This document shows, one piece after another, positions 2,679 through 19,378 of a DNA stretch of 20,000 nucleotides. The DNA comes from an uncultured virus (IMG/VR IMGVR_UViG_3300021400_001516) (Duplodnaviria > Heunggongvirae > Uroviricota > Caudoviricetes): the IMG/VR virus record IMGVR_UViG_3300021400_001516. One strand, given 5' to 3'. Every line of letters starts with the position of its first letter. The first letter of the stretch is position 1. The notes beneath the pieces were generated by a model, which searched no databases, was not told the origin of the DNA, and saw only the letters and a program-made list of their open reading frames with translations. Made by a program: the position numbers and the translations under genes.

Positions 2679-4694
2679 ATGAATGAAGAAGTAATTAGAT
2701 ACTTACCGTTTCCCGACAACGTAAGGAAAAGACCCTCTATGTATTTAGGAGGACTAGAAAATGCATCAGTCCCCTTACGAGAGATTTGTGATAATAGTTG
2801 TGATATTATTGCGGAATCTGGAATAGGGGATACGATTTTGGTAAGTAACGACTTTAATGGTTTTTTATTTGTTGCAGATAATTCTTTGGGAATACCAATC
2901 TCAATGAGTATTGATAAACCAGAGATGACTCAAGCTGCTCTTAGTATTCTATCTCTTCATTCCGGTTCAAAGTTTGAGGCAGGCGATACGACAAGAGTAG
3001 GACTTAATGGTGTAGGTTCTGCTGCGGTATCGGCTTGTAGTGAAGTATATTGCCTCTTATCTAAAATCCATGAAGGGAACTACACAGGTTCAACAAAAGA
3101 AGTTTATGATTGTTGGATGAATGCAGGTCCAAGAGATAGGAAAAATCTCTATTACATTGTAGTCTGTGAGAAAGGTATCAAGACTTATGAAGGGGCAGGA
3201 AAATTAAAAGACTTAGAGAAAATGATCTTTAGAGGAATTAAGAATTATATTGAAATTCCAAAAGGGATGAGTACAATAGTCTTGTTTAAACCTGATCCTG
3301 AAATTTTTGAATCAACGCAGGCAGAAATTCCAGAAAAAAATCTTCAGTATTACTTATTAATACAGGAAAAGTTTTATGGAAGAAAAGTAAATGTGGTAGT
3401 AGATGGGGGAAAACTTGGAAATTCTATGACACCTTATAAGTTCGAGGTACTTAGAACTATTATTCCAAAAGATACTTCAATGAATAAACAGGTTGGAGTA
3501 TATTTGACCTTTGAGGTAGATCCTTCACTTGGACCTAAGGTTGAAACGGGATCAGTGAATGGACTCGATACTAATAGAGGACAACATATAACTATTGCAG
3601 AGAGTGTTCTTAAGACAGCATTAAAAGATTATTATAAAATTAAACATGACTGTCTTTTGAATGGAATGCAATTTAGGATGGTTGTTTTAGCAAATGAATG
3701 TCAGTTTAATAGTCAGACGAAAGAAAATCTTAAGGCTATTTCAAAAGTAAAATTGACAGACTTTGCTCCTTTAGTGAAGGATATTGAAAAAATTTTTAAG
3801 AAGAATCCGGAGTATTGGGACTTAGTAGTAGAAAAGCTTAATCAATTAGCTGACTCTATGAAGTCTATTGGGGCTATGGATAAAGCTGCAAGAATGATGG
3901 ATTCTCTTAGTGGAGTTGCACAGTATAGAGCAAAAGCCGATTATCCAAAAACTTTTGCTGATGCGACTGGAAAGAATAGAGTCGACTGTGAATTATTTTT
4001 AGTTGAGGGTAATTCAGCACAAGGATCTCTGGTGATGGGAAGACCTGATACTAAAACTCATGCTATTTTAGGTTTGAGGGGTAAGATCTTAAATGTAACC
4101 GATAAAGGTGTAGATCGAGCACTTGAATCTAAAGTTATTGGGGATATATTTAATATTATAGGTCTTGGTCTTGATATTAATTGGGTTGGAAGTAATGCAT
4201 CTTCTTTTGATGAGGAGCATGAAATAATAATGAAGAAAACAAGATACGGAAAAGTAATTATTGCGACAGATGCAGATCCTGATGGATCTCAGATCTGTAA
4301 TGAAATTATGTATCTATTTTCGAAATTTGCACGATTCCTAATTGATCATGGAATGGTGTATAGAGCACTATCTCCGTTATTTAGAGGAATTAGTAAGACG
4401 ACTGGAAAAGTAACTTATTATTATCCTGACGACCCGATTGATCCTTCCACACAGTTTCCGATAGATCTTGATACAAAGAAGCACTACGATAGGTGGAAAG
4501 GACTTGCATCGCTATCGCCAGAAACAGGAGAAGTTTACGATGCATTCTTTAATCCAGCAACAAGGAGATTAGTACAGATAACTCCTGATGGCTTGGATTA
4601 TGGAAGACAGCTTAATGAAGATATTAACGAGAGAAAGAAATTATTGTTTAATCAGGGAATTCTTAGTAATCCCTATAACTTTACAGATCTCTAA
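2679..4694 (+). CDS. gyrB: Type IIA DNA topoisomerase ATPase/TOPRIM subunit (GyrB/ParE-like)
   Basis: GHKL motifs VRKRPSMYLG, LREICDNSCD, ADNSLGIP, LHSGSKF, GLNGVG; TOPRIM motifs LFLVEGNSA, LRGKILNV, IATDADPDG; RWKGL. Confidence 0.95.
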   Translation: MNEEVIRYLPFPDNVRKRPSMYLGGLENASVPLREICDNSCDIIAESGIGDTILVSNDFNGFLFVADNSLGIPISMSIDKPEMTQAALSILSLHSGSKFEAGDTTRVGLNGVGSAAVSACSEVYCLLSKIHEGNYTGSTKEVYDCWMNAGPRDRKNLYYIVVCEKGIKTYEGAGKLKDLEKMIFRGIKNYIEIPKGMSTIVLFKPDPEIFESTQAEIPEKNLQYYLLIQEKFYGRKVNVVVDGGKLGNSMTPYKFEVLRTIIPKDTSMNKQVGVYLTFEVDPSLGPKVETGSVNGLDTNRGQHITIAESVLKTALKDYYKIKHDCLLNGMQFRMVVLANECQFNSQTKENLKAISKVKLTDFAPLVKDIEKIFKKNPEYWDLVVEKLNQLADSMKSIGAMDKAARMMDSLSGVAQYRAKADYPKTFADATGKNRVDCELFLVEGNSAQGSLVMGRPDTKTHAILGLRGKILNVTDKGVDRALESKVIGDIFNIIGLGLDINWVGSNASSFDEEHEIIMKKTRYGKVIIATDADPDGSQICNEIMYLFSKFARFLIDHGMVYRALSPLFRGISKTTGKVTYYYPDDPIDPSTQFPIDLDTKKHYDRWKGLASLSPETGEVYDAFFNPATRRLVQITPDGLDYGRQLNEDINERKKLLFNQGILSNPYNFTDL

Positions 4695-6875: not shown

Positions 6876-6914
6876 TTCCTTAAATAAGAATAAGCGTATA
6901 TAAAAGCGTGAAAT

Positions 6915-7037
6915 TCTTATAAATACAAAAACAACTTTCTGGTGTGTGAAAGTTCTATATATATTTACACAATTTTATAAATTTTAAATAATTTTATTTT
7001 AATTTAATTTCAATTTTATTAATTTTTAGATTTTATT
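6915..7037 (+). promoter_or_regulatory. Promoter motif (TCTTATAAATA), H-type pseudoknot and U-rich leader: candidate translational operator
   Basis: Stem 1 AACTTTC 6933-6939 / GAAAGTT 6948-6954; loop TGTGT 6943-6947 pairs with ACACA 6967-6971; then about 65 nt almost purely A/T up to the ATG. Confidence 0.6.
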
Positions 7038-14598: not shown

Positions 14599-14654
14599 AA
14601 TATTAAAAAATTAATAAATGTTAATAATACGTATATAAGGTTACTTCAGGAGTG

Positions 14655-14755
14655 AAAAAAATAGGTCCTGCCTTCTCAGGTGAGACCCACTTTGAAAAAA
14701 AACTGGATTAAAATTGGACTAAAATTGCTTTCTATTATCAGCCTATATATAAGAG
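14655..14755 (-). ncRNA. Candidate small RNA cassette (promoter motif, 11-nt tandem repeat, terminator)
   Basis: Minus strand reads CTCTTATATAT (14755-14745), CAATTTTAGTC/CAATTTTAATC repeat, then GTGGGTCT..CCT-GAGA-AGG..GGACCTAT plus T-tract; no ORF. Confidence 0.4.
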
Positions 14756-14807
14756 TTCTAAGGGTAAAGAATTCTTCTGAAGATTATATCAAATCCTTAT
14801 AGGTACA

Positions 14808-16322
14808 ATGTTAAATATAAATTTCAGCAAAGATAAAAATTTGTTAATTTTAGAGACAGATGACCCAAGTGCGGTCTGTTTCTTAGAAGCAAATCAAAAA
14901 AAGTATGAATATATTCCTTATCAAAAAAAATGGGGATATACTGAGAAGACTCTAAAAATTTATGAACCTAAGAGAGGAAGAAAGCCGAAAACTAATTCTA
15001 ATATTGAGACTTATGAAATAGGGCCAGGCTGGGTTGGATATCTCTTAGGGGTATTTAGAGGAAAACTAAGCTCTGAAAATTATAATCAAATTCTTAAAAA
15101 TGTAGTTTATTCAGATCTTAGTAGAGAAGTACCTTTTCCAGAACTTCGAGATTATCAAAATTCTGATGTATTGTTTCTTTTGAAATATAGAAGAGGTCTT
15201 ATGACTGTAAATACAGGCTATGGAAAAACTCAAACCATAGCTACTCTTACAAACTACGCACATGAAGAACTTAAGAAAAAGGTTCTTCTCGTATGTCCAT
15301 CTAATAAGGCAAGAGACGAACTTGTTAAGAGATGTAAAAGTGTTTTTAATCTCGATGTAAGTTACCGGGATAAAGACCTAAATGGACACCTCGACTGTAT
15401 TATCACTGCTGGCCTTATGAATTCTAAAAAAACTGAAGAAGATTGGTTCTCAGATCTTCTCAAGGAATATCAATGGGTACTTGTAGATGAGGTAGAATAT
15501 ACTATAAATCCCGGAGGTAATTTTATTTACAAGCATACAACGGGGGCAGAGAGGTTCTATGCTTTCTCCGGTACTGCTGATAAAGAGAATGGTGATATGA
15601 TTTCTTTTAATCAAGGACTGTCAGATGTAGTTCTTAGAAATAAAGATCTTATAAAATATTTTGGACCATCTCTTATCTATAGAAAACCTCTTAATATTCA
15701 AGTATCTTATACCTCTATTAAAACACGAGCTCTAGACAACTTAAAAATAGATATTCCGGAGATTCAGGAAGAGGGGGGAAATGTATATCTTGAAATCATG
15801 GCAAGAATATGGACTGATCCCGGAGTAGTAGCGGTTTTAATGGAGACTCTGAGACACTTCCCCCGTGCATTTCTTCCCATGAATAATCTTGTTAGTATTA
15901 TTAATATATGGATCGAACAATATTTTAAGGGAAACTTTAGAATTCTCCTGGTATGTGGTGAAGGATATCTTTATTATGATCTTGAAGGAAATAAAACAAA
16001 ACTTTCTCTTCAAGAAGCATGTGATTATATCTCTCAGGGGCTTGTTGATGTAATACCTTCTACTAGTGCTGGATATCGTGCACTAGACTTTCCTGGACTT
16101 GAAAATATAGTTTTAATACAGGGAAAAATAGGAGGAGTAGTTCTTCAATCTATTGGAAGAGTTGCAAGGGGAAGTCATATGAGAATTGTATGTTTTGAAC
16201 CTTTCTCTAAAAGATCAATCCCTATCTACTCTAAAGGAGCCGATGAAAGAAAGAAAATGATACAGGATTATTATCAGTACTGCGATATTCAATTCGAAAC
16301 CTTATTAGAAGATGAGCTATAA
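14808..16322 (+). CDS. Superfamily 2 helicase (UvsW-like)
   Basis: Q motif LRDYQ, Walker A NTGYGKT, Ia VCPS, Walker B LVDEVE, motif III SGT, motif VI QSIGRVARG. Confidence 0.88.
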   Translation: MLNINFSKDKNLLILETDDPSAVCFLEANQKKYEYIPYQKKWGYTEKTLKIYEPKRGRKPKTNSNIETYEIGPGWVGYLLGVFRGKLSSENYNQILKNVVYSDLSREVPFPELRDYQNSDVLFLLKYRRGLMTVNTGYGKTQTIATLTNYAHEELKKKVLLVCPSNKARDELVKRCKSVFNLDVSYRDKDLNGHLDCIITAGLMNSKKTEEDWFSDLLKEYQWVLVDEVEYTINPGGNFIYKHTTGAERFYAFSGTADKENGDMISFNQGLSDVVLRNKDLIKYFGPSLIYRKPLNIQVSYTSIKTRALDNLKIDIPEIQEEGGNVYLEIMARIWTDPGVVAVLMETLRHFPRAFLPMNNLVSIINIWIEQYFKGNFRILLVCGEGYLYYDLEGNKTKLSLQEACDYISQGLVDVIPSTSAGYRALDFPGLENIVLIQGKIGGVVLQSIGRVARGSHMRIVCFEPFSKRSIPIYSKGADERKKMIQDYYQYCDIQFETLLEDEL

Positions 16323-17727
16323 TATGAATTCAGGAATTAACAATGTAGATTTATTACTGGGATGTTTCTCGCCTTATGTATTTTCACAGGCAAAAGAAGC
16401 TATTTACGATTTAAAGTACTATTTTGATACTAATCCTGCAACTTCAGGAAATCCTATAATATCAGAATTAGTAAAGGCTATCAGAGACTATGATCTGGAT
16501 GCAATTGGAATACCGCTATTTAATAGTATTTTTGCTAGGTGCCAATTATCTCCGGCAGAGGGACAGCAAATTCTAAATCGAGTAGTAGAATATAAAAAAT
16601 ACTCGAAAGAACAAATGCTGCCCGTAAAAAAGTATGTTTCTGATGTTGTTGCTAGTGTCTGGTTATCAAAGGCGGAGAGGTATCAAAATAGTCCTTCAGA
16701 TTATATAAATTACATTAAAGGAATAAATCTGAAAAGCTCAGATAGGGAAGGGCTGAGTTCAATAAATTTTAATGATCTTGATATAAATTCAATCTTAAAA
16801 CAGGAAAGTGATAATATAGTTCAAAGTAAGTTTGATTTTATAAATAGGTCTTTTCCCAACGGTGGATATCCGAGAAGTTCAATTATTATTGTAAGTGCTC
16901 CTCCGGGTGTAGGTAAATCATTGCTCTTGACGGAAGAAACTTTATGGATGGCTCTTCATGGAACTAAGGTTTTGTATGGTATCTTTGGTGATATCGGAAT
17001 GAGGGACATGTTGATAAGAATGTGTGCCATCTATAGTGGGTTTTCTTTTAATGAGACTAATCGAAGACTTCCAGAGCTATATAAAAGTCTTAGGGATGCA
17101 TTAAGAGGGAACTTTGAAATATCCGTTAATCCAGCAGGACAAGTTAGTGTTGAAGAATTTGTAGAATTTTCAAAGAATTCTCCTGCGAAAGTTATTGTAG
17201 CAGACTATGATAGTAACCTGACGATGGAAGCTAAATCGGACTCTATGTACGATCTTTTTGGAACTATGTATCAGAAGTTTACTGAACTTACTGCTGAACC
17301 TTATAACAAACTTCTTTTTGTGGCAAGTCAACCTAAAATTGTCGCTTGGGGAAATTCAGTGATAGGTTTGACGGACATTGGTGAAAGTTCTAGAAAACAA
17401 CATGCGGCTGATATGATCATTACAAAGGGCAAAGAGGTTAATAGTCCAAACCATCTTAGTGTAATAAATATTCCAAAAAATCGTCGCGGTGAAGTTGATC
17501 TTCAGGCATACTCAATACGTCTTAGTAATGGTAGAACTAAGATTGTACCTAGGGCTGTTTATCAAAATCTTCTTCAGATTCCTGAAAAAAGAGAGTATCT
17601 TGACAGTGAAATTGATATGATGATAGATGGATGGAGAAAATCTCAAGGAAATATAAATGCTGCTGTAGAAAATCGTATGAATCAGCAACAACAAAGACAG
17701 GGACCTTTTCCCTTTCCGATGAGCTAA
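16312..17727 (+). CDS. dnaB: Replicative DnaB-like (SF4) helicase
   Basis: Walker A APPGVGKS, VADY, ASQ, GESSRKQHAAD, arginine-finger KNRRG. Confidence 0.85.
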   Translation: MSYNMNSGINNVDLLLGCFSPYVFSQAKEAIYDLKYYFDTNPATSGNPIISELVKAIRDYDLDAIGIPLFNSIFARCQLSPAEGQQILNRVVEYKKYSKEQMLPVKKYVSDVVASVWLSKAERYQNSPSDYINYIKGINLKSSDREGLSSINFNDLDINSILKQESDNIVQSKFDFINRSFPNGGYPRSSIIIVSAPPGVGKSLLLTEETLWMALHGTKVLYGIFGDIGMRDMLIRMCAIYSGFSFNETNRRLPELYKSLRDALRGNFEISVNPAGQVSVEEFVEFSKNSPAKVIVADYDSNLTMEAKSDSMYDLFGTMYQKFTELTAEPYNKLLFVASQPKIVAWGNSVIGLTDIGESSRKQHAADMIITKGKEVNSPNHLSVINIPKNRRGEVDLQAYSIRLSNGRTKIVPRAVYQNLLQIPEKREYLDSEIDMMIDGWRKSQGNINAAVENRMNQQQQRQGPFPFPMS

Positions 17728-17758
17728 AAATACCCCCGTTTTAGGGGTATTTTTTTTT
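17726..17758 (+). terminator. Rho-independent terminator
   Basis: AAAAATACCCC-loop-GGGGTATTTTTTTTT immediately after the helicase stop. Confidence 0.9.
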
Positions 17759-17790
17759 CCGTCTGAAAAGGCCTAAAAAGCCTTATATAT

Positions 17791-17972
17791 AGAGAGAGTT
17801 AGGAGAAGTTCTTAACGAATACTGAAAATACCGGAAAACCCATATAATTATAAATCCGGCAGAAAGTAGTTAGGAATAATATCTATCTCAACGAACACTG
17901 AAAATACTAGAAAACCTACATGATTATAAGAGCTAGTAGAAAGTAGTTGAGATGGAAATCTCTCTTTTTTTT
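17791..17972 (+). ncRNA. Structured ncRNA 1 containing two tandem copies of one module
   Basis: CCTTATA at 17781; terminal AGAGAGA/TCTCTCT stem plus T-tract; two modules 76 nt apart with compensatory changes. Confidence 0.75.
17809..17956 (+). repeat. Two-copy imperfect direct repeat (17809-17876 and 17882-17956)
   Basis: Consensus AACGAAYACTGAAAATACYRGAAAACC...ATTATAA...CYRGYAGAAAGTAGTT. Confidence 0.9.
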
Positions 17973-17995
17973 GTTCCCCTCAAAACCTTATATAT

Positions 17996-18153
17996 GAAAT
18001 TAAAAAAAAATATGTTGCCCGTCGCGGGATTCTTTCATCCCGCACCCCCGAGAGGAACTTCAATCCCACATTCATAGGCGACCTGATATCGGTCGTGGAC
18101 GACGCTCCGCTACTTTCCCGCCCGGGATCTCGAAGTTCCTCTCATTTTTTTTT
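17996..18153 (+). ncRNA. Structured GC-rich ncRNA 2
   Basis: CCTTATA at 17986; hairpin GCGGGAT/ATCCCGC; 12-bp stem 18050-18061/18132-18143; internal hairpins; T9. Confidence 0.7.
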
Positions 18154-18171
18154 CGCCTTATTTTCTTATAT

Positions 18172-18290
18172 ACAAGATTGATTGAGTTGGTCTCTGAACA
18201 AGGTCTTATAAACCTAACGTGACTTGTAAAAGTATTCTCCCCGTTGTAGTGTGGGTGAAGAAGACATCTTGATCAATCATTATTTTTTTT
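18172..18290 (+). ncRNA. Structured ncRNA 3
   Basis: TCTTATA at 18164; 11-bp terminal stem 18176-18186/18268-18278 with G-U pairs; two internal hairpins; T8. Confidence 0.65.
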
Positions 18291-18310
18291 GTCCCCTAAA
18301 AACCTTATAT

Positions 18311-18378
18311 ATGACTGAAATTTATATTATTGTGATGGAACAGCGAATGACTAAGATAAAAATTCGCTGTTCTTTTTT
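18311..18378 (+). ncRNA. Candidate short sRNA 4
   Basis: CCTTATA at 18303; unpaired 5' segment, then perfect 11-bp hairpin 18338-18348/18362-18372 plus T6. Confidence 0.55.
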
Positions 18379-18437
18379 ATTCTTTTCAAATCCCCCTGTT
18401 TTCTTATATTGGATATAAATTTTAAAGTTTAAAGATT

Positions 18438-19088
18438 ATGGCAGAAATTACAATTACGCAAGCTTTGAGTACTCTTAAGGTATTAGAGAAAAGACTTAAG
18501 GCAAAGTTAGGAGTTTCCGATAACGGTAGACGTACTTCAAGTGCTAACTTAAAGTTGGTAGCTGTATCACGTGGTTCACACCTGAGGGATCCTTATACTT
18601 CCTACAAAGAAGAGGATTTCATTGCTACGGCTAAATCTTCTATGCAGTCAATTGAAGATCTTGATGAAAGAATTATTACCATTAAAAATGCTATTGCTGC
18701 TAGCAATGCGGTAACGATGGTCAAGATTGCAGGGAAGGAGATGACTGTACAAGAAGCTATTATCAGGAAACAATACTCTGAGCTCAGAAAGCAAAAAATC
18801 GAAGCTTATAAGGCCGAACTAAAGCGTGCGAGGGAGGAGTTCCAGGAGGTGATTGATGAAAATCGATCATACGCAGAACGTCTTGCCAACGGAGAGAGCT
18901 CAGACTCTAAGAAGTTTAAGGATGCTGAAGAATTTGTCAGCAATACCTATGCTGCTTCTTTAATCGATCCCTGTGATCTACAGAACAAGATTGAGAAGAT
19001 GGAGCAGGACTTCGAAGATTTCGTTGCCAATATTGACTTTGTACTTAGTGAGTCCAATGCGACTACTAAGATTATTATACCCGATTAA
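18438..19088 (+). CDS. Coiled-coil protein resembling the DIP1984-like family
   Basis: ITITQALSTLKVLEKRL, AIAASNAVTMVKIAGKEMTVQEAI, LIDP, IDFVLSESNATTKI, with internal duplication of the SNAxT and TxxxA motifs. The family assignment is from recall and needs an HMM check. Confidence 0.7.
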   Translation: MAEITITQALSTLKVLEKRLKAKLGVSDNGRRTSSANLKLVAVSRGSHLRDPYTSYKEEDFIATAKSSMQSIEDLDERIITIKNAIAASNAVTMVKIAGKEMTVQEAIIRKQYSELRKQKIEAYKAELKRAREEFQEVIDENRSYAERLANGESSDSKKFKDAEEFVSNTYAASLIDPCDLQNKIEKMEQDFEDFVANIDFVLSESNATTKIIIPD

Positions 19089-19108
19089 AAAAAATAGTTC
19101 TTAACCGG

Positions 19109-19378
19109 AAACACTCAGAAATAACGCCATCTTTTATCTTGGATGTTAAATTAAGATAATCATTAATAGTACAGCATGTTAATGAAGAACTTATAAGTGT
19201 AAAAGTTCTTAGTATCTTAAAGCTCAAGGATAAAAGATGAAAGTTGAAAGCTCAAAGTTTAAGTTATTAAAGCTTAGAGTTTAAGACTTAAAGCTGATAA
19301 AATCCTCGGTTTATGTTTATCATATTCTTGGAGATATGTAGAGGTTTTGCAGTTGTATCCTCGAGTGTTTGTACGAGG
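19109..19378 (+). ncRNA. Structured RNA with heptamer-repeat core downstream of the coiled-coil gene
   Basis: AAACACTC 19109-19116 pairs with GAGTGTTT 19363-19370; several internal stems; repeat tract 19217-19294. Confidence 0.65.
19217..19294 (+). repeat. Degenerate ~7-nt tandem repeat, consensus TNAAAGN, 11 units
   Basis: Unit-final G at 19222, 19229, 19236, 19243, 19250, 19257, 19263, 19272, 19279, 19285, 19293. Confidence 0.85.

Follow-up and report, generated by a model that had tools for sequence, protein, structure and literature searches.

Candidate small-RNA genes in tandem promoter-terminator cassettes of an uncultured phage

Introduction

What does a phage genome encode in a gap of 710 nt that holds no open reading frame (ORF) of at least 60 amino acids (aa)? 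The question is raised by positions 17728-18437 of a 20,000-nt stretch of DNA, hereafter the window, from the uncultured Caudoviricetes virus IMGVR_UViG_3300021400_001516 (IMG/VR). This gap, or island, lies between a gene for a DnaB-like helicase (16312-17727) and a gene for a 216-aa protein. A previous sequence-only reading had described it as an ORF-free interval of about 700 nt, and as an array of four non-coding RNA (ncRNA) units that each run from a recurring motif to a T-tract and that are possibly exchangeable. Four such units, all on the same strand, are indeed found when the sequence is read directly. The account toward which we lean, although by no means strongly, is that they are independently transcribed orphan phage small RNAs carried in exchangeable cassettes, with the first two units acting as functional structured RNAs.

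To our knowledge, phage small RNAs are under-explored in phage-host conflict, and almost nothing is known of them in Bacteroidales phages of the gut and rumen; we are aware of no phage small RNA with an established function in gut Bacteroidales phages. The island supplies two well-structured candidate orphan RNAs with clean predicted boundaries, one built of tandem modules and one GC-rich and branched. It also defines the promoter of a large-phage lineage about which little is known, a signal that is common to early operons of Bacteroidales prophage-like elements and that makes related metagenomic contigs easier to annotate and to assign to hosts. Free exchange of the cassettes, if it takes place, would make them a natural system for the gain and loss of non-coding genes by phages.

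Each unit has the anatomy of a transcription cassette

Each unit begins at (C/T)CTTATATA and ends in a helix followed by a run of six to nine T residues. The motif reads CCTTATATA where it starts at 17781, 17986 and 18303, and TCTTATATA at 18164, while the T-runs end at 17972 (T8), 18153 (T9), 18290 (T8) and 18378 (T6). The distances from the end of each T-run to the next motif are 14, 11, 13 and 24 nt, in agreement with the spacing of about 10-25 nt read previously. The last of these intervals leads to a fifth copy of the motif, TCTTATATT at 18402-18410, which lies 28 nt upstream of the ATG at 18438.

The motif is both enriched and oriented. YCTTATATA occurs seven times in the window against 1.42 expected occurrences, a count reached by none of 200 shuffled sequences. 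All five CTTATAT[AT] sites of the gap are on the + strand, and the only two other intergenic copies are on the - strand, at 14753 and 14639. The two junctions that had been singled out as near identical share 91% of their letters over 32 nt, in register, and belong to a junction family (D1) of three copies with 69-100% identity to its reference copy. Five putative + strand promoters can be delimited on this basis. P1 (17768-17789; ending in GGCCTAAAAAGC CTTATATA) is assigned from its sequence and from the consensus of a related genome described below. P2 (17976-17994; CCCCTCAAAAC CTTATATA) and P4 (18293-18311; CCCCTAAAAAC CTTATATA) belong to family D1, and both are followed by TG. P3 (18154-18172; CGCCTTATTTT CTTATATA, then CA) is a weaker match, and P5 (18392-18410; CCCCCTGTTTT CTTATATT) is the copy that precedes the gene for the 216-aa protein.

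At the other end of the units, the expected stem and T-run are present in every case, through long-range helices in units 1 to 3. None of the four unit ends was flagged by a simple terminator scan. In units 1 to 3 this is explained by T-runs that abut long-range closing helices, the local hairpins there contributing only about -5 kcal/mol, and the terminator hairpin of unit 4 has a 13-nt loop. The left border of the island is itself a terminator of the helicase gene (17726-17758, + strand), in which an 11-bp hairpin of -12.8 kcal/mol is followed by a T-run. Overall, the arrangement supports the view that the units are built as independent intergenic transcription cassettes, each with its own predicted promoter and intrinsic terminator.

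Since all four units point at the gene starting at 18438, on its own strand, one might ask whether they are instead a stacked leader, that is, a cascade of attenuators or insulators that tunes or times expression of the 216-aa protein by read-through and releases no free-standing RNAs. Termination through the long-range helices of units 1 to 3 is possibly leaky, and in unit 1 the stem of the second module and a small GAGAU/AUCUC hairpin beside the T-run contest the same bases. However, the 216-aa gene has a promoter copy of its own, a row of four strong terminators would be a strange design for read-through, and strains appear to drop or swap units while leaving the gene promoter untouched. 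We consider the leader hypothesis improbable.

The unit-start motif is shared across a large-phage lineage

The status of the motif can be judged by comparison with a related genome. When viral contigs were scanned for the extended junction, G001 emerged, a 184-kb contig estimated to be 49% complete and hence probably from a jumbo phage. Its helicase is 47% identical to that of the window (E value of 2e-132), and an alignment with the helicase found this contig only. Among its genes are those for topoisomerase II, an SbcC-like protein, a beta-like phage RNA polymerase protein, GroEL, a CCA-adding enzyme and NAD synthetase. CCTTATATA occurs 18 times on the gene strand of G001 and twice on the opposite strand, compared with three and one occurrences for the reversed control; 112 of its 121 ORFs of at least 150 aa lie on the gene strand.

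A promoter set was defined in G001 as the 27 gene-strand copies of CTTATATA that have a T-run no more than 45 nt upstream. An ORF of at least 35 aa starts 15-144 nt downstream of 23 of these, and for 19 of the 23 this distance is 15-72 nt. TG directly follows CTTATATA in 21 of the 27, and the consensus order is a T-run, a C/T-rich stretch, CCCCTNAAAAC, CTTATATA and TG(A/T)A. Junctions in which a T-run, a C-rich box and CTTATATA follow one another number in the dozens in this contig. On this comparative evidence, the motif is the standard promoter of the phage lineage. Because the same signals occur across G001, the unit-start motif and the near-identical junctions of the island are best read as ordinary terminator-promoter signals and not as parts of the RNAs. 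As a separate observation, the topoisomerase II gene of the window is preceded by a variant of the promoter (CCCCACCAAAGT CTTATACA; 2630-2660), so the signal is not confined to small cassettes.

A 21-nt extended pattern, CCCCTNAAAMCCTTATATATG, has nine matches in the genomes of 185,579 species, and all nine are in Bacteroidales (Bacteroides, Phocaeicola, Paludibacteraceae, Muribaculaceae and Candidatus Colivivens). Two of the sites adjoin a transfer RNA (tRNA) or transfer-messenger RNA (tmRNA) gene. The sites (loci L227-L235, with the motif mostly at about 3001-3021) head operons with genes for DUF3871 proteins and Sak single-strand-annealing proteins and, in one locus, for a PD-(D/E)XK nuclease, and genes for Cro/CI-type helix-turn-helix proteins lie nearby. 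In gene content these loci look like the early regions of integrated prophage-like elements, which could be ordinary temperate phages that use the same type of host promoter, or elements adapted for activation by the large phage. The occurrence of the motif in such early operons suggests that the window phage probably infects Bacteroidales.

Transcription from the early promoters of an integrated element normally requires the host polymerase. The primary-sigma promoter of Bacteroidota, as described in a study of Bacteroides transcription (PMC7366714), has a -7 box, TAnnTTTG, and a -33 TTTG. The string TATATATG within the motif is one mismatch away from TAnnTTTG; it matches five of the six specified positions at P2, at P4 and in 21 of the 27 promoters of G001. 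Units 1 and 3 have TA or CA in place of the TG after the motif. The prophage-like early operons and this near-match tentatively point to the host polymerase as the enzyme that reads the promoter. The matter is not settled, because any TTTG present is just 14-15 nt upstream, a C-rich box, and not the -33 TTTG, is what is conserved upstream, and G001 encodes beta-like polymerase subunits of its own. The arrangement of CCCCTNAAAAC, CTTATATA and TG contains no TTGACA/TATAAT pair at a spacing of 16-18 nt, and a scan for sigma-70 promoters gave no excess (84 sites versus 74.1 +/- 8.8). A search of G001 for a gene for a T7-type RNA polymerase returned no match and is uninformative, given that its controls also failed.

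Units 1 and 2 are predicted to form structured RNAs

Unit 1 (17790-17972, + strand) would yield an RNA of about 175-183 nt that ends in T8 at 17965-17972. A terminal helix formed by AGAGAGAG and CTCTCTCT encloses two tandem stem-loop modules of about 76 nt each, M1 (17806-17880) and its paralogue M2 (17881-17960), which were detected as direct repeats of 76-77 nt (D2 and D3). A module consists of a stem, purine-rich internal loops, a CCGG/CCGG stem and an A/U-rich loop of about 20 nt. M1 and M2 have identical stretches in common (ACTGAAAATAC, AGAAAGTAGTT, AAAACC and ATTATAA). Their shared fold has 15 pairs, three of which have changed on both sides and are still paired, while two others have changed on one side by way of G-U pairs; apart from one gapped position, no pair is broken. 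The same helices appear in the single-sequence fold of the whole unit, whose z-score is -3.5, with none of 200-300 dinucleotide-shuffled sequences being as stable. The compensatory pattern indicates that selection acts on both the hairpins and the loop sequences.

Above the basal stem of both modules, GAA on the 5′ strand lies opposite AGUA on the 3′ strand (17811-17816/17866-17872 and 17888-17893/17943-17949). This arrangement presumably recalls the S-turn of sarcin-ricin or loop-E motifs, although the minimum-energy fold pairs AGUA with UACU and does not adopt the S-turn arrangement. The apical part of M1 (CTGAAAATACCGGAAAACCCATATA; 17822-17846) is also 76% identical to 17763-17787, which lies upstream of P1 and extends into it (repeat D4). 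The module loops may thus carry a promoter-like string composed of an A-rich segment, CC and ATATA, which in AT-rich DNA could also arise by chance.

Repeats beside a gene for a replicative helicase, together with several promoters, might signify an element that acts as DNA, such as a replication origin or an array of protein-binding repeats. Against this, there are only two copies of the repeat, and their stems differ by compensatory changes. Moreover, G001 has a homing-endonuclease gene immediately after its helicase gene and lacks a comparable gap there, and in the window the gene orientation does not switch at the island. A DNA-level function therefore seems highly improbable.

Unit 2 (17995-18153, + strand; about 150-159 nt) ends in T9 at 18145-18153. 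In its outer helix a 5′ A9 tract pairs with the 3′ U9. A 5′ hairpin (18024-18045) is followed by a perfect 12-bp helix (18050-18061/18132-18143) that closes a branched, GC-rich core, just as a long closing stem after a 5′ hairpin had been read from the sequence before. The GC content within the unit rises to 0.59, compared with 0.345 for the window. With z-scores of -4.1 to -4.4, its fold is again more stable than those of all 200-300 shuffled sequences. One candidate interaction between units 1 and 2 (GAAAGTAG versus CTACTTTC) was rejected, since 66 of 300 shuffles give an 8-nt match as well, which is chance level.

The pairing of 5′ and 3′ ends, noted earlier for units 1 and 3, persists in units 1 to 3 whether transcription is assumed to start 1, 5 or 8 nt past the motif. 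For these same units, the gain in folding stability over shuffled sequence is larger on the + strand than on the - strand. As structured elements, the two RNAs of units 1 and 2 are convincing, and their non-coding nature is well supported by their structure and by the compensatory changes. That they are functional seems to us probable.

Units 3 and 4 are weaker candidates

Unit 3 (18173-18290, + strand; about 110-118 nt) ends in T8 at 18283-18290. It has a terminal helix of 11-14 bp (18176-18189/18265-18278) and a weakly structured interior. Unit 4 (18312-18378, + strand; about 60-67 nt) has about 25 nt of 5′ sequence, then a 12-bp hairpin (18337-18372) and T6 at 18373-18378. The z-score for its fold is -3.9 to -4.9, and none of 200-300 shuffles is as stable. 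Unit 4 is essentially little beyond a promoter and a terminator hairpin, and it is variable. Thus the proposal of a four-unit ncRNA island holds for the cassette build and for the structured nature of units 1 and 2, and does not hold in full for unit 3, which lacks significant structure, or for unit 4. We regard a function for unit 3 as possible yet doubtful, and one for unit 4 as unlikely.

Could the units instead encode micro-peptides? The gap contains seven ORFs of 20-55 aa, among them a frame of 21-27 aa in unit 2 and one of 35 aa that starts in unit 4. Genes of Bacteroidota are not known for strong ribosome-binding motifs, so the absence of Shine-Dalgarno sequences says little on this point. 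These frames, however, start inside a promoter or cross terminators and the next promoter, the frame of unit 4 has no stop codon before the T-run, and the compensatory changes of unit 1 sit at helix positions. We consider it very unlikely that the island serves to produce micro-peptides.

Given the strong promoter evidence, transcription of the units is likely. We propose that RNA polymerase would recognize the C-rich box, A-rich spacer and CTTATATA, usually with TG, and start a few bases beyond them. The product would be an RNA of 60-180 nt, whose 5′ end in units 1 to 3 would pair with its 3′ end, such that the terminal helix and U6-U9 might serve both as an intrinsic terminator and as end protection. 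Because its duplicated modules keep the purine-rich internal loops and the A/U-rich apical loop, unit 1 would most likely be a two-site platform for protein binding (a sponge or decoy). Unit 2 would be a GC-rich branched RNA, unit 3 a weaker candidate, and unit 4 a minimal, dispensable promoter-terminator unit. Recombination between junctions could add, remove or swap units, since the terminator-promoter junction is common to all cassettes.

A bolder extension of this scheme, which we regard as a long shot, is that units 1 and 2 are founders of new classes of phage decoy RNAs, that unit 1 titrates a dimeric host protein, and that the island is a swappable counter-defence arsenal of RNA-only genes in gut Bacteroidales phages. 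The previous sequence-only reading had named decoys, anti-defence RNAs or regulators as possible roles. Candidate targets of unit 1 would then include a defence nuclease, a ribosome-directed toxin or a transcription factor. A search for antisense targets, in which duplex energies were computed for each unit against 21 translation-start regions of the window, gave no outlier (best z-score of -2.4).

Contigs from other samples hint at cassette turnover

Sequencing runs that contain the window sequence are metagenomes of sheep and cattle gut or rumen. The comparison across samples is based on assembled contigs, several of them at low depth, and not on reads. Contigs from samples X3 and X9 carry units 1 to 3 at about 95-97% identity. 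A 401-nt contig from X3 (depth 2.2) spans 17915-18288 and continues with 25 letters, 21 of which match 18379-18403; it jumps from the T-run of unit 3 to the homologue of 18379-18403 and is thus without unit 4. Another X3 contig reaches 18374 from a different terminator hairpin. In X17, a contig from an RNA library (depth 111) matches 18192-18286, the 3′ half of unit 3, with three differences in 95 nt, then continues into a different junction with a C-rich box and CCTTAT and on into about 990 nt that do not resemble the window. From the helicase gene (14 differences and two gaps over 406 nt), a second X17 contig passes into a version of the module 1 start that is more diverged. At least four further sequence contexts in X9 and X3 contain the junction at 17966-18011 by itself, at depths of up to 16-21.

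Together, these contigs hint at, and do not demonstrate, cassette-wise turnover at the junctions. The suggestion that the cassettes are exchangeable gains from the X3 contig without unit 4, from the different neighbor of unit 3 in X17 and from the recurrence of the junction, and it is limited to the status of a hint by the low depth of the contigs, in which the software called no joints.

Several observations weigh against the view that the island is a set of functional, separately transcribed RNAs. Identity in X3 is about 95-96% over the island and about 98-99% over the flanking coding sequence, so that the island is not the better conserved of the two, and the start of unit 1 in X17 is likewise more diverged than the adjacent helicase gene. 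Contigs from RNA libraries cover 17400-17805 and 18192-18286 (X17) and 18395-18697 (X20), none of which matches the unit outlines; one X17 contig runs through the helicase terminator, and these contigs may derive from DNA. The RNA run X21, which comes from the probable source sample, has next to none of the sampled window words. Unit 3 is not significantly structured, with z-scores of -1.0 to -1.5 and 21-29 shuffles being as stable, and the folding z-scores of the - strand are negative as well. The local hairpins in front of the T-runs of units 1 to 3 are weak, so termination there would depend on the long-range helices. Finally, no homologue of any unit was found in the searches described below, so that conservation can be judged among near-identical strains, and compensatory change within unit 1. 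With regard to expression, the small shares of X17-X20, the near-zero share of X21 and the uncovered parts of the island are uninformative either way.

Some of these observations would be expected if the island were regulatory debris, namely empty or decayed promoter-gene-terminator cassettes left by recombination at junctions, whose RNAs are perhaps made but have no function. This explanation is strongest for units 3 and 4, considering the lack of significant structure in the former and the reduction of the latter to a promoter and a terminator hairpin, a unit that one X3 contig lacks. It also gains from the island being no better conserved than its flanks in the strain contigs and from G001, where similar ORF-less units of 70-150 nt are found among ordinary gene cassettes. 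In contrast, the helices of unit 1 have been kept through three compensatory and two one-sided changes, along with long identical loops. Unit 2 is GC-rich and far above shuffle stability, unlike a decayed gene of an AT-rich phage, and no remnant reading frames are visible. For the island as a whole we regard debris as an unlikely explanation, and functional RNAs in units 1 and 2 remain the reading that we prefer.

The units match no known RNA family

The earlier observation that none of the units reads as a tRNA cloverleaf agrees with searches by ARAGORN, which finds no tRNA or tmRNA genes in the window, and against Rfam. Under relaxed settings ARAGORN makes two implausible calls with introns of 79-118 nt and one "mitochondrial" call. 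When the whole window was compared with Rfam 15 (4227 models, including 6S RNA, signal recognition particle RNA, RNase P, riboswitches, ribozymes, CRISPR direct repeats and tracrRNA), no match reached the gathering score. A lax search over 17650-18500 gave ten noise matches (E values of 0.42-9.4; 11-22 bits, compared with thresholds of 44-117). At E values up to 10 there is no match to the Rfam models for tRNA or tmRNA, nor, with regard to a possible RNA anti-CRISPR that mimics a CRISPR repeat or guide, to the Rfam models for CRISPR direct repeats or tracrRNA.

These results bear on the possibility that the island is a decayed cluster of phage tRNA genes. A 102-nt contig from an RNA library of X20 (depth 2) has a tRNA-like 3′ end, with a T-arm and acceptor strand recognized by eye, directly before a T-run and a junction resembling 17750-17794; this contig hints at tRNA genes housed in cassettes of this kind in related phages. 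The tRNA region of phage T4 also holds two small RNAs of unknown role (PMC3014915). ARAGORN nevertheless finds no plausible tRNA even when relaxed, Rfam gives no tRNA match, and units of 110-180 nt have folds that are not cloverleaves. The notion of a decayed tRNA cluster is close to refuted.

Searches for homologues were equally negative. A blastn search with 17700-18440 gave no match in 50,697 phage records, and tblastn against the same records returned distant relatives only, at less than 36% identity; the window thus has no close relative among them. Comparison of the gap with G001 by blastn aligned promoter junctions only, and that contig has no homologue of units 1 to 4. A pattern for the unit 1 module hit at least 120 loci in viral contigs, and among the matches listed none has the second module half or the promoter. 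A longer version of the pattern had one chance match in metagenome contigs, in unrelated non-coding DNA. A covariance model of the module, run over 474 kb of loci, recovered its two training copies and one match with an E value of 0.68. Against 401 sampled Bacteroidales genomes, unit 2 gave four short matches with per-genome E values of 0.001-0.007, which is about chance. Scans of viral contigs with single flanking proteins yielded nothing useful; alignments with the 216-aa protein produced 80 loci at 28-41% identity, none of which has a comparable upstream gap or motif pattern.

Relation to known phage and bacterial RNAs

Of the systems known to us, the cassette architecture most resembles the promoter-early stem-loop (PeSL) elements of T4-type phages, in which a strong promoter and a terminator stem-loop lie between small genes (Arbiol et al., 2010; PMC2839356). 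Recombination between PeSL elements is described there as leading to insertions, deletions and replacements of the modules that they flank (PMC2839356). Judged against that description, the compact terminator-promoter unit is likewise repeated here, as the D1 copies and the dozens of junctions in G001 attest. The promoters differ, being sigma-70-like in phages RB49 and phi1, whereas here CCCC, an A-rich spacer and CTTATATA(TG) lie near the Bacteroidota -7 box. The flanked modules also differ in that they are non-coding, and evidence for exchange consists of a few low-depth contigs from X3, X17 and X9, which is suggestive only.

Phage T4 encodes two small RNAs of unknown role in its tRNA region, RNAC and RNAD (PMC3014915). 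Like the island units, they form a group of stable-looking small RNAs, neither tRNA nor messenger RNA, in a large lytic phage. They differ in that the island has no sequence similarity to the phage records searched, that the window has no tRNA genes, and that each island unit has its own predicted promoter and terminator. Pseudomonas jumbo phage PA5oct has four annotated ncRNAs (PMC7318152). It is similar as a large phage with a handful of ncRNA genes, a comparison made by description and through the phage-record blastn search, which gave no match.

On the host side, high-confidence small RNAs of Bacteroides such as GibS are described as intergenic and as having a dedicated promoter and a Rho-independent terminator (Ryan et al., 2020; PMC7366714). 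By sequence, the island units fit this promoter and terminator architecture, and the phage probably infects Bacteroidales. The island differs from those host RNAs, as they are described, in being encoded by a phage, in having four units in a row and in the lack of similarity of unit 2 to the sampled Bacteroidales genomes. Taken together, these comparisons are consistent with an island of putative phage small-RNA genes in promoter-terminator cassettes, whose promoter and junction are ordinary for the lineage and whose RNAs are orphan candidates.

Non-coding cassettes elsewhere in the lineage

Although G001 has none of the units of the island, four of its 27 promoters have no ORF of at least 35 aa starting within 150 nt and do have a T-run within 300 nt. 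For three or four further promoters, the first ORF lies beyond a T-run. Non-coding cassettes are thus a recurrent feature of the lineage, and their contents differ between the two genomes.

Two longer stretches of this contig are also of note. One, at about 178,700-179,330 (L128 1700-2330, - strand), comprises about 600 nt of non-coding sequence behind a CCTTATATATG promoter, with segments rich in GC and in hairpins. It lies a few genes downstream of the gene for the CCA-adding enzyme (tRNA nucleotidyltransferase) and has no Rfam match; the 184-kb record has no tRNA genes. The other (L136 4456-4851, - strand) holds an ORF-free unit of about 240 nt between a promoter-like TCTTATAAG site and a T10 run, and may be another orphan RNA gene.

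In the window itself, a possible fifth cassette lies on the - strand at 14641-14754. It begins at TCTTATATA (14754-14746), is about 85 nt long and ends in a weak hairpin and T7; its fold is not significant (z-score of -0.5). A CCTTATATA copy directly after it (14640-14632, - strand) heads an ORF of 82 aa at 14598-14350.

Gene setting

The window has a GC content of 34.5% and carries genes for phage replication and recombination, including those for both topoisomerase II subunits, an SbcC-like protein, two helicases and thioredoxin. The 216-aa gene that forms the right border of the island (18438-19088, + strand) belongs to phrog_1491, which bears the label "tail fiber protein", and has no Pfam family. 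The previous description of the remaining genome as one of overlapping genes needs qualification, as further gaps of 100-260 nt are present at 2579-2678, 6876-7037, 14599-14807 and 19089-19346.

Other RNA elements and mobile genes occur in the relative. G001 has four group I introns (RF00028; 53-64 bits) in two tandem pairs (L218 18571-19134 and L219 918-1639), and elsewhere it has split genes for topoisomerase and anaerobic ribonucleotide reductase as well as several homing endonucleases.

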